Shown piece after piece: positions 49,110-61,520 of a DNA stretch of 64,000 nucleotides; the stretch's first letter is position 1, and every line of letters starts with the position of its first letter. The notes beneath the pieces were generated by a model, which was not told where the DNA came from, ran no database searches, and was given only the letters and a program-made list of their open reading frames with translations. Both the position numbers and the translations under genes were made by a program. Origin of the DNA: Hydrolagus colliei (taxonomy: Eukaryota); NCBI GenBank assembly GCA_035084275.1, contig CM068747.1, positions 17,732,001 to 17,796,000 of the forward strand, written 5' to 3'.

Positions 49110-49662
49110 GAGACAGCTGAAGGGGAGACAGGGAGAGAGAAGGGGAGACAGGGAGAGGGAGAGAGAAGGGGAGACAGGGAGAGACAGAGAGAAGGGGAGA
49201 CAGGGAGAGACAGAGAGAGACAGAGAGAAGGGGAGACAGGGAGAGGAGGAGACGGGGAGAGACAGAGAGAAGGGGAGACAGGGAGAGGAGGAGACGGGGA
49301 GAGACAGAGAGAAGGGGAGACAGGGAGAGAAGGGGAGACAGAGAGAAGGGGAGACAGGGAGAGAAGGGGAGACAGGGAGAGACAGAGTGAAGGGGAGACA
49401 GAGAGAAGGGGAGACAGGGAGAGACAGAGTGAAGGGGACACAGGGAGAGACAGAGAGAAGGGGAGACAGAGAGAAGGGGAGACAGGGAGAGACAGAGTGA
49501 AGGGGAGACAGAGAGAAGGGGAGACATGGAGACAGGGAGAGACAGAGAGAAGGGGAGACATGGAGACAGAGAGAAGGGGAGACAGGGAGAGACAGAGAGA
49601 AGGGGAGACATGGAGACAGGGAGAGACAGAGAGAAGGGGAGACAGGGAGAAGGGGAGAGAGT
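49110..49662. repeat. GA-rich compound minisatellite upstream of DARS1
   Basis: About 550 bp built from GGGGAGACA, GGGAGAGACA and GAGAGAA units; + strand almost all purine. Confidence 0.95.
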
Positions 49663-49687: not shown

Positions 49688-49762
49688 GGTGATGCTGTTT
49701 CCGGTTGGTACCGGAAGTCAGGCCGAGGCTGTCGGGGTGAGTGGGGACCGGGAGCCGCCGCC
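49688..49762 (+). promoter_or_regulatory. DARS1: DARS1 core promoter/5' UTR (CpG-rich, ETS/GABP motif)
   Basis: TTTCCGG (49698-49704) and CCGGAAGT (49711-49718) just upstream of a perfect GCCGCCATG Kozak. Confidence 0.6.
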
Positions 49763-49785
49763 ATGACAAAGGAGGAGATTCAGGG
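49763..49785 (+). CDS. DARS1: Aspartyl-tRNA synthetase 1, coding exon 1 (MTKEEIQG)
   Basis: GCCGCCATG, donor GG|GTAAG in phase 2, in frame with exon 2; resembles teleost Dars1 N-termini from recall. Confidence 0.85.
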
Positions 49786-49904: not shown

Positions 49905-50134
49905 CAGGCCCCGGCCTCCCGCAGGCCCCGGCCTCCCGCAGGCCCCGGCCTCCCGCAGGCCCCGGCCTCCCGCAGGCCCCGGCCTCCCGCAGGCCCCGGC
50001 CTCCCGCAGGCCCCGGCCTCCCGCAGGCCCCGGCCTCCCGCAGGCCCCGGCCTCCCGCAGGCCCCGGCCTCCCGCAGGCCCCGGCCTCCCGCAGGCCCCG
50101 GCCTCCCGCAGGCCCCGGCCTCCCGCAGGCCCCG
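49905..50134. repeat. Perfect 17-bp GC-rich minisatellite (CAGGCCCCGGCCTCCCG), about 13.5 copies
   Basis: Directly readable tandem array in DARS1 intron 1. Confidence 0.97.
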
Positions 50135-50554: not shown

Positions 50555-51080
50555 AATAATAAAGATTTGGTCACTTTCAATCCACGACTGTTTTGCGAGA
50601 CGATTGGCTGCCGCGTTTCGCCCACAAACACGCAGTCGATTCGCTTTACAGGATATCCTGTGAAGCGCCTCGAGGCGTCAATAGGATGGGGAGAGCGCTG
50701 CATCGAAGGCAAGGATTATTGATGCAATAAGCGGTGAGTGATCGTTGCCGGAAGAGGCTGGATTGACCACGGCTATGATCTCCCGCGACGGTTGAGTACA
50801 CTGGTGACAATTGCCATTTGCGCTTTACGCTTGTGGCAAAGCACGGGAGGACTAATGGTAGCCATTGGAATATCTGGAAAGAGACACGTCCATTAGCAAG
50901 GCTGTTTTACACTTCCTTGGTGTATTTGGTCTGTGAAGAGGGGAGTGGTCTGTTTGCATTTTAAATGATTATTATTAGGCATGTGTCGTAAGAAAACTTT
51001 GCCAAAGGTTTTGCCCTGCCTGGAGTTGAACTGTGGTCTGTCACTTGTAAGGCGACCGCTTCTGAGCTACAGGATTCCAC
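50555..51080. mobile_element. SINE fragments (+ 50555-50720; minus 50968-51080)
   Basis: Family core and tail in the first, head in the second. Confidence 0.75.
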
Positions 51081-51291
51081 AATCTTAGCCAATATCTGTT
51101 CTCAGTTAGAGAAGGAAATCTCTTATCTAGCAGAAATGGTTAGTTGCACCTCAGTAGGGGAAAATATCTGAGTTGATCATTTGTAAATGTCATGACCAAG
51201 TCATTTTTGTTTTGTAATACCCATCACCGTGCTCAAGAGTATCCAAACTGAAACTGAGAGTTGCATGCGTCCAATCTACACATGGAAATTC

Positions 51292-51559
51292 GGAGCTCCT
51301 CTAGCTCTAGTGTTGGTGATGCTGTTTCCGGGCCGAGGCTGTCGGAGCGAGTGGGGACCGGGAGCCGTCGCCATGACAAAGGAGACAAAATTGGTCATTT
51401 CAATCCACGACTGTTTGTGAGACAATCCTATGCGCAATTGGCTGCTGTGTTTCGCCCACAAATCTACAGTCAATTCATTTTACAGTATATTCTGTGAAGC
51501 TCTTTGAGACATCGATAAGATGTGAAAAGCATAGTATCAAATGCAAGGATTATTACTAT
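51292..51559 (+). mobile_element. Chimeric SINE containing a copy of DARS1 exon 1
   Basis: SINE-head-like GGAGCTCCTCTAGCTCTAGTG, then 51315-51384 matching 49688-49774, then SINE core and tail; AAATTC duplicated at 51286-51291 and 51560-51565. Confidence 0.85.
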
Positions 51560-54011
51560 AAATTCCAGCAATATTTGTTGGAATGAAATGCGTACCCTCG
51601 CACTTGATGCATGCATACTGCTTACCTAATTCCAGAAATCAATGTAAAGAAGTATAAAAATCTTGCATTTGTGATAGTGCTTTTCACATCTAGACGTCTC
51701 AAAGCGCTTCACTGAATATACTGGAAAATTAATTGACTATATTTGTGGGCAAAGCTTGACATTAGCCAAGGCTTAGGGACTCTAAAATGTGTGTTAGGGT
51801 ACTGCTTGGGTCTAACCAGCACTAACTGAATAGCTTGTCATTGAGGACACTGGCTGGCAAGCTTTCCCTGCTGCAAGTCACAAATTATTTATGGAGGAGT
51901 AATGTCGGTGGCTAAGTACAGTAAAAGCTTATTTATCTGGTACCCAACCAACCAGAATGCTCAACCAACCAGTACCGCCCAATGCAATTCACCATTCCAG
52001 CAAATGGATCTCATACTGAAGCCATCTGGGACACTCGCGAGTATGCTCACTTTGCACATGCGTGCAGACCTGGTATCAAACCTGATGCCTGAGTTGCACC
52101 AGGTTTGGTGAGTCTGAGGAAGTAGAGCGACTAGATTTGCCTGATCCACTTACATTCAAATATCCTCCTACATTCTTTGTCTGGGATCATGTATGAAGAG
52201 AGAACAGAGGGCAAGTCAAATGGCAATTCCTCCTAGTGAATGAGGAGAGAGTAAAATGTGTATTTTCACCAATTTTACATTCCATGTTGTAAGGACTGCG
52301 AGGGTAACCTGAGTGTGTTTTTCATCCTGTCACTATAACCACAGGACTCCTGGGCTTTGTTTTCAATGGAAAAATAAATACTGACTAAATACCAGCTTGA
52401 GCTGAAAGTCTGTTAATACCATGGTCCATTGTTGAATCTGGGCTCTGAGTGCAACACGTACAGTGCTGGGGAAGCCATGCTTGGCATTTTATCAAGCTTT
52501 TTTTTTAAGAGTATTTTCCAGGCATGTCTGGAAATATCATGTGAAGGAAATCACTGCAGTAAGTTTTCCTGTTTATTACAGGAAATGTTTAAAACTGGAA
52601 TTTCTGCTATTCACCATTCAGAAAAATTGCAGGTGTAGTCTTTTCATAATTTGGGGCAGCTGGATTATAGGACAACAATTGTGCTTGTATGAAGTCATCC
52701 AGGAAGGTGAAAAAACAAATTTGCTTGATCAGACACATGATACAAAAATTAGAAAATTATTCAAATAATATACTTTAATTTAATATACATTTAATGCACG
52801 TATTGTGTAAATTTATAGTAGCAAAAACCCTATGTTATTGGCATCTCCATGTACTGTGTTATTTGGGTATCGTCTTAGAACATTTAAGATATTAATGCAA
52901 ACTTCAATAATTAGGATTAAGATGTTATAATGAAACTGGGAAACCAAATAAACCCCTAAAATTTATTATTTATTACATGTATAAGCATTTTTTTTTTTCT
53001 TTGGAAAAATTGCATGTGGGACTGCTTCTGGTGGTAATATATATATTATGTAGTAGAGCAACAGTAGATGCAAAACAGTGTGGAGGCTATATAATAGTAC
53101 AAAACATTGTCGATTTACTGCCACAGGTTACATTGAGTATTCTGTCCTCTGCAATTGTAAAGTATGAGAAGCATTGGTTTCAGTATATGCATATTTAAAT
53201 AACAAAACCTTTAGTATAGGGTTATGAGGTGAAACTGCACATTTGAAATTCTAATTTTTTGGATCATGAACTGGCCGGATGCAGGTTCCATGTTTGCAAT
53301 TCTCCACAATGTTTTCCTGATCTCACTTGGGAGGGGGAAAGAGATTGTTGTGCCATGCAGAGGGCAGCTGCTTCCCACATAAAGTACTAATGGGATTGTT
53401 ATATCGATCAGCTTTTCTCATCTTTCAATGGCAAATTTGTAAAGCCAGACATTCTCTTATGCAAACCATGTTCAAGTTTGGCTTTCGAATTCAGTGCAGT
53501 GTTATATGGTTGTTGATAGTTATCAAGGGGGATTAGGTTGAATCTGTTGGTTCAGTGGAATAACAAGATGACTAACTAGAACAAAGCACTTTGAAACAAA
53601 CACCTGGAATTATGTCTATTTTCCTTGCAGCTGGCAAGCCAGTCCAAATGACGAGGGTTTCACATGAATGTTTATTTCCTGAAGGAACAGTTTAGTAATT
53701 CAATAGAAAATTCTTCTCTGATCTACTTTATCTGTTGTGTGATCAGGAACAGTGTAAAATAACAATCCAACAGTTGATATTGTAAGACAACATGTAAATA
53801 GCACGATATAAACAAATGCATTCATCGAGGGATTAAATCACTTTTACATTCAGTGGAGTTCTACATCTTGATTTTTCTGATCACTCTTGAACATCCTGAA
53901 GGAAATATATGGAAAGCACAATAGATGGAAATAACAAAACAGCTGCTGTTCATAAATTTTGCATGGCACTTGGCAATCATTACAATGACACTCCTGTTTT
54001 ATCCTATATAG

Positions 54012-54108
54012 TGCCCAAGAGGACCAGGCACAGTCCAAGAAGGCTGCCAAGAAACTGCAGAAGGAAGCGGAGAAAGCTGCCAAGAAGGCGGAGAAACAGA
54101 CTAAACTA
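54012..54108 (+). CDS. DARS1: DARS1 coding exon 2 (AQEDQAQSKKAAKKLQKEAEKAAKKAEKQTKL)
   Basis: TATAG| acceptor, |GTGGGT donor, 97 nt, phase 2 to 0, consistent with both neighbours. Confidence 0.88.
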
Positions 54109-61107: not shown

Positions 61108-61520
61108 TGGTCACCTGGGTGTCTGACACGTGGAGAAACCCATCACTATGCTGAAGAGTATCCAAACCAAAGATAATTCCATGCATCCCACTTAGACATG
61201 AAAATTCCTGAGATATTTATTGGAATGGAATGAGCACACATCCTGCTTTCCTAATTTCAGAGATTAACAGGCACAGGTTTCAAGAGTCAAAGCTTGAGGA
61301 CTCCAGAGAATGTGATGGAGTACAGCTGGTGTTAAAACCCACATAGCTTGCCATTGAAAGCCAATGTCTGTGGCAAGCTGTCGTACTGCTTATCGAGCTA
61401 GGACCACTCTTATCCATTAGGGCTGTGGCTTGCAGTAGTAACAGCAGCTGATTGGGAAGAGTCCCTTCTTCCATTAACTGGCCTGCCCTTCCAAGACTGC
61501 CGATGAGCCAGGCAGGCTGG
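61108..61520 (+). repeat. Unclassified ~400-bp dispersed repeat
   Basis: GTGTCTGACACGTGGAGAAACCCATCACTATGCT...CACATCCTGCTTTCCTAATTTC...GAGCTAGGACCAC. Confidence 0.75.

Follow-up and report, generated by a model that had tools for sequence, protein, structure and literature searches.

The window analysed here, a stretch of 64,000 nucleotides, contains the 5' part of a gene that can be assigned to DARS1: one of the exons farther downstream matches human cytoplasmic AspRS, exon 2 encodes a peptide that agrees with Callorhinchus milii DARS1 at 31 of 32 residues, and the DARS1 proteins of shark, ray and coelacanth start much like the true exon 1, which contributes 23 coding nt and ends in phase 2. 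The host must hence be a cartilaginous fish, probably a holocephalan. Three listed Callorhinchus milii DARS1 models do not contain this conserved first-exon peptide, probably because of a gene-model gap at the GC-rich exon. Two tandem repeats flank the promoter region, a purine-rich GA minisatellite with a strong G skew immediately upstream of it (49119-49658), and a 17-nt GC-rich repeat of 13.5 copies, 100% identical, located 120 nt into intron 1 (49905-50134). Intron 1 also harbours a chimeric SINE, in which a patch copied from the start of the gene itself lies about 1.6 kb downstream of its source. The features concerned are the following.

49688..49774, plus strand: source of the patch, comprising the DARS1 promoter/5' leader and the first 12 coding nt, intact
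49699..49716, no strand: two ETS cores that face each other and make up a perfect inverted repeat of 7 bp; partly gone in the copy
49763..49785, plus strand: coding part of the true DARS1 exon 1, followed by the phase 2 donor GTAAGG
50555..50725, plus strand: 3' half of a SINE within the DARS1 CpG island, with an A/T to G/C shift (19:1)
51219..51285, plus strand: left part of an unnamed multi-copy host repeat, which resumes at 51566
51286..51291, plus strand: left target-site duplication (TSD) AAATTC of the SINE, single in the empty-site paralogues of the host repeat
51292..51307, plus strand: remnant of the tRNA-like SINE head, 15/16 to family consensus positions 2-17, its last base fitted by contigs of relatives
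51308..51314, plus strand: 7 junction letters, either the SINE consensus with two edits or letters newly added in repair
51315..51330, plus strand: patch, part 1, exact copy of 49688-49703
51331..51384, plus strand: patch, part 2, copy of 49721-49774 with 3 substitutions and the copied start codon at 51373
51385..51559, plus strand: SINE 3' half with an ATT-repeat tail, 15/175 sites off consensus, 5/9 CpG lost
51417..51422, plus strand: candidate cryptic splice donor GTGAGA, weak, predicted in phase with exon 2
51560..51565, plus strand: right TSD AAATTC of the SINE
54012..54108, plus strand: DARS1 exon 2

Alignment confirmed the layout described in an earlier note on this DNA, with its coordinates, the duplicated AAATTC and the flanks that rejoin into a repeat. 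The rejoined flanks of the host repeat (51219-51285 and 51566-51620) align across one AAATTC to copies at window positions 61138, 11165 and 35815, at least 39 further copies were scored among 679 candidates, and the equivalent site was empty of SINE in 9/9 paralogues fetched from the genome. The 70-nt copy of DARS1 49688-49774, announced with three substitutions and a 17-nt deletion, was borne out letter by letter: copy and source differ at 51346, 51348 and 51368, and the copy lacks 49704-49720, including CCGGAAGT. With an E value of 4e-15 against the 1.0-Gb genome, the match lies far above chance. The 23-bp SINE head proposed earlier stands for its first 16 nt (51292-51307), and the remaining seven (51308-51314) are better described as junction letters. 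Compared with a 319-nt consensus of 14 full copies, about 125 nt of the SINE interior, B box included, are absent from the chimera. The patch has neither a TSD nor a tail of its own, the sole TSD (6 nt) enclosing the entire chimera.

The structure is real and confirmed. In a second sample of the same organism, sequenced in another study (run X5), one unbroken contig of 800 nt runs from 50609 to 51408 without a gap and with 3 differences, at a depth of 38.4 against 42.6 for the adjacent long contig; the 5' junction and the 17-nt gap both lie within it, and it extends 24 nt beyond the 3' junction, where the bridging threshold was 31 nt. The unbroken contig suggests that this sample has no second allele, the chimera being apparently present there on both chromosomes. 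An assembly artefact might be suspected from the nearby source, itself located between tandem repeats; however, the contig from an independent sample and study contains the 5' junction with the 17-nt gap and continues 24 nt past the 3' junction, and the copy differs from the source by 3 sites and a gap, so the chance of an artefact is practically negligible. Mobilisation, which had been raised earlier, was addressed by searching the genome for other copies: DNA search returned only the source and the copy, and a 15-nt pattern used to detect a third copy gave 3 matches, namely the source, the copy and one unrelated sequence, its reversed control giving 2.

The head of the SINE family is tRNA-like, since four Rfam tRNA matches were found in the window and three of them fall at the heads of identified SINE copies. 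By exact pattern, the family has at least 6267 normal-length copies in the genome. The CmiSINEs of Callorhinchus milii, SINE2-1_CM and SINE2B-1_CM, resemble it in their tRNA-derived head, very high copy number and holocephalan host as described (PMC5499810); the chimeric copy differs in having lost the B box and the interior. Against the 6267 normal-length copies, 115 internally shortened ones were found. None of the 30 examined among these 115 contains a filler of 12 nt or more; they are simple deletions whose filler, if any, does not exceed 11 nt, and recurrent filler capture in the family was discarded on this count. Hence, the patching of a SINE of this family is a rare accident. Four shortened SINEs outside the 30 examined seemingly hold 15-30 nt of non-consensus filler (C3:69519963-69520063, C14:26404874-26404971, C21:16826368-16826481 and C26:12436068-12436185). 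Near-identical SINE copies were also observed at even spacing, at C23:14200197, 14234531 and 14268891 (about 34 kb apart) and within C1:8586205-8651742 (14-22 kb apart), pointing to large tandem duplications. In the window, a SINE head and 5' half without 3' half lies on the minus strand at 50965-51075, about 200 nt upstream of the chimera and facing away from it.

The order of arrival of SINE and patch was examined in relatives, a check already suggested by the earlier note. Besides X5, six further runs were compared, of which X8, X11, X13 and X14 had no listed piece across the chimera and prove nothing. Organism B (run X7) differs from the window at 63 of 2404 nt over 8 listed pieces, that is, by 2.6%. 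A 193-nt contig of this run fits 51154-51307 with 4 differences and continues with 37 nt unlike the window; two contigs of run X6, from another study, fit up to 51307 and continue with 32 unlike nt, one of them having 4 differences in 48 nt. Position 51307 is the last base common to the chimera and the SINE consensus, where the patch side begins. The relative contigs share the unique left flank, the TSD and the SINE head, and end like unitigs entering multi-copy sequence; their depth is low (2.0-3.9), and an intact SINE in the relatives, deduced from the departure point, would be the simplest reading. A paralogous repeat-plus-SINE locus was sought as origin of these contigs and none was found. 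Given that the left flank is single-copy (51150-51210) and that 0/39 scored paralogues of the host repeat run into a SINE head, at least the X7 contig is, judged from its sequence, the orthologue.

Internal decay was also compared. The SINE half has lost 5/9 CpG and the patch keeps 6/6 of those of the source (Fisher p 0.044, on only 15 sites), although the retention in the patch could reflect low methylation instead of youth. The 70-nt patch has 3 substitutions, where 0.9 would be expected to arise along a single lineage after the split (P 0.066); they fit error-prone copying and also an older patch. Another match of run X6 fits 51340-51384 with 4 differences and is then unlike; it is probably the true exon 1, which would place the three substitutions on the side of the copy. 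Since the relatives hold the SINE head at the site and leave it at 51307, the SINE likely came first and the patch later, after the split from the relative that is 2.6% apart. By the clock of PMC5499810, which amounts to 42-48% in 421 million years, organism B may have split off, very roughly, 10-15 million years ago.

The reading that we favour, with a probability of roughly 60%, is that a germline break in a resident SINE was patched from the start of the gene itself, leaving a one-off and probably inert chimera. A germline DNA break in the SINE residing in DARS1 intron 1 would have cost the element about 125 nt of interior sequence; the repair polymerase would then have switched template in cis to the DARS1 start, 1.6 kb upstream, and skipped 17 nt by slippage at the ETS hairpin, and the patch would have been rejoined with little or no microhomology. 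Deprived of the B box, the product is predicted to be no longer transcribed or mobile as a SINE. The local templated insertion put forward in the earlier note is thus supported, and the departure of the relative contigs places it, in all likelihood, after the SINE had settled. Polymerase copying, a cut DNA fragment and cDNA would give the same data; copying by a repair polymerase in cis is favoured because error-prone synthesis more readily yields both a 17-nt slip next to a perfect hairpin and a pair of substitutions lying 2 nt from each other. Microhomology amounts to 1 nt at the 17-nt gap, and the other junction matches do not beat the null. The source has a good predicted fold (z -2.6 and -3.6), although a pure hairpin skip was rejected as cause of the gap, which does not coincide with the ends of the hairpin. 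A tiling of the junction letters by multiple switches to the source (three 6-mers) was rejected too: it beat a naive null (0/1238 windows, 0/3000 shuffles) but failed a fair one, in which 7/16 two-letter fillers matched on the 3' side, while on the 5' side the share was 4% for random fillers and about 12% for SINE-decay ones.

The same succession of events, SINE before patch, is shared by an explanation in which the patch is a fragment released from the DARS1 promoter of another chromatid by two SPO11 cuts and ligated into the SINE deletion. In mutant mice, fragments from two SPO11 breaks are inserted into deletions, with medians of 67-95 bp (10.64898/2026.02.11.705388); ectopic insertion of such fragments is also the subject of 10.1101/2020.06.23.168138. 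The present case resembles those ectopic insertions in insert size, as the 70-87 nt of the patch are matched by medians of 67 and 95 bp, in the combination of deletion plus insertion, in the little microhomology and, putatively, in a source located in a break hotspot. The hotspot is suggested by the SINE half at 50555-50725, 800 nt from the source, which has 19 weak-to-strong against 1 strong-to-weak non-CpG changes, compared with 59:69 in 29 other copies (p 2e-5). Membership in a GC-rich subfamily was rejected for this SINE, its next best genome copy being only 81% identical; GC-biased gene conversion is the likely cause of the shift, which hints at meiotic breaks at this promoter. Over 43 SINE copies the G/C shift rises with the CpG ratio of the flanks (Spearman 0.51, p 5e-4), a correlation biased by the 14 copies picked for likeness to the shifted one. 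Promoter-directed breaks would fit, moreover, what is reported for elephant shark PRDM9, which lacks a domain, evolves slowly and is the sole orthologue without detected expression (PMC5519329). However, no G/C shift is visible in the recipient SINE (2:5), which lies beyond the edge of the CpG island, and a ligated piece should be unchanged, so that the 17-nt gap would require a second event. The mouse events come from Atm or Mre11 mutants (10.64898/2026.02.11.705388), whereas a fixed or common natural fish allele with an internal gap is seen here, and its hotspot is deduced from the G/C shift. Ligation of a double-cut fragment is consequently regarded as unlikely, though deserving of attention.

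RNA could have entered in two ways. The break in the resident SINE could have been patched on the spot from the nascent DARS1 transcript or its cDNA, as the sense orientation and the local source of the patch would allow, and reverse-transcribed RNA patches are documented among class 2 templated insertions (PMC5110952). But the patch has no RNA hallmark, as it does not span a splice junction, and it begins upstream of the ETS pair. At ETS promoters transcription may start only downstream of such a pair, and may hence not yet have started where the patch begins; an RNA or cDNA template for the repair is accordingly improbable. Alternatively, the LINE enzyme that inserted the SINE could have copied its 3' half, jumped to DARS1 RNA and then to the SINE head. 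One TSD around the whole chimera and a patch in sense orientation from the 5' end of a transcript speak for such jumping, and template switching has been proposed for the building of this SINE group (PMC5499810). It needs, however, two switches and a source that happens to be merely 1.6 kb away, SINE half and patch are unequal in CpG decay, and the relatives appear to have the SINE without the patch. The template switch mentioned in the earlier note, if meant as a reverse-transcriptase switch at SINE insertion, is disfavoured by the relatives and appears quite improbable.

Repair from the gene's own start has parallels in described classes of insertion. With the class 2 templated sequence insertions of Onozawa and Aplan (PMC5110952), ascribed to break repair in germ cells, the chimera shares a short templated patch at a deletion, an intact donor, the absence of TSD and poly(A), end-joining-like junctions and a germline origin; their recipient sites have deletions with microhomology or extra letters, and here approximately 125 nt are missing with respect to the consensus and 7 junction letters are present. 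Those insertions have distant sources, are polymorphic and include RNA-derived patches, whereas here the source lies 1.6 kb away in cis within the same gene, one further sample gives no sign of polymorphism and the DARS1 patch bears no RNA mark. Germline insertions by MMBIR (Osia et al. 2021, PMC8421209) are likewise copy-paste events by template switching, and accumulate where genes stay undisrupted; their templates were sought within 100 bp, and clear microhomology is not seen here. Therefore, the patch works like both and formally belongs to neither, as its source is not distant enough for class 2 nor within 100 bp as for MMBIR. Tandem exon duplications and unannotated intronic exon copies (PMC9013439) are similar in that a partial copy of an own exon lies in an intron with a possible new splice form, but here the true donor was not copied, and the SINE would supply a candidate one. 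In the openly accessible main texts searched, no description of this DARS1 locus was found. The class of event is already known, and the chimera is an additional, well-bounded instance of a repair accident.

Whatever its origin, the chimera might serve DARS1 as an alternative first exon and supply a new N-terminus of 15 residues. As the earlier note had claimed, the copied ATG at 51373 is separated from the GT at 51417 by 44 nt, in phase 2 and without a stop, so that the predicted frame is open into exon 2; the start codon lies in a good context, the CpGs are kept and the chimera is apparently on both chromosomes of the second sample. Unspliced, the frame stops after 15 codons. GTGAGA at 51417 is, as anticipated, a minority variant, carried by 5 of 29 SINE copies that were selected as those most like the SINE of the chimera, and its A is hence also present elsewhere in the family; the phase match has a prior of 1 in 3. 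Pairing between the donor and U1 is limited to +1 to +5, and its weakness was confirmed: it scores 11 against 18 for exon 1, and 123 of the 232 GTs in intron 1 score as high (by a simple consensus-based score), which makes it an average donor. Regarding the promoter, the loss of the ETS site noted earlier applies to the strongest site, which is deleted, and a weaker core, CCGGAAAC, survives on the minus strand at 51324; the GC box was not copied, and the site lies outside the CpG island, with a CpG observed/expected ratio of 0.33-0.38 in the preceding 400 nt. An internal cassette exon was discarded, since the pyrimidine tract is short and the exon would have 106 or 112 nt, out of frame. The alternative N-terminus occurred in 0 of 120 listed proteins of a DARS1 search, a weak indication because these are cluster representatives, mostly of other species. 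With an average donor, the main ETS site and GC box absent and a position outside the CpG island, the evidence from sequence leans against exon use, no regular first exon is predicted, and a working alternative exon is rated very unlikely. A scenario joining hotspot and exon, in which the hotspot promoter pasted its start-codon region into a SINE, the SINE gave the splice donor and a functional second first exon thereby arose in DARS1 over the past few million years, must be considered highly unlikely.

Repair of a break in the resident SINE would make the chimera a clean natural case, in a cartilaginous fish, of a templated repair patch that can be dated and for which the resident SINE supplies the known sequence before the event. 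If such patches were enriched at CpG-island promoters, promoter-directed meiotic breaks would be tied to changes of gene structure in wild genomes, a link observed until now chiefly in mutant mice. Use of the exon, if it occurred, would offer a rare snapshot of a first exon born from repair debris, with only a few poorly conserved N-terminal residues of DARS1 being swapped. Moreover, were hotspot and exon both to hold, promoters that are hotspots would give rise to alternative first exons of their own, in a lineage with a weak PRDM9.
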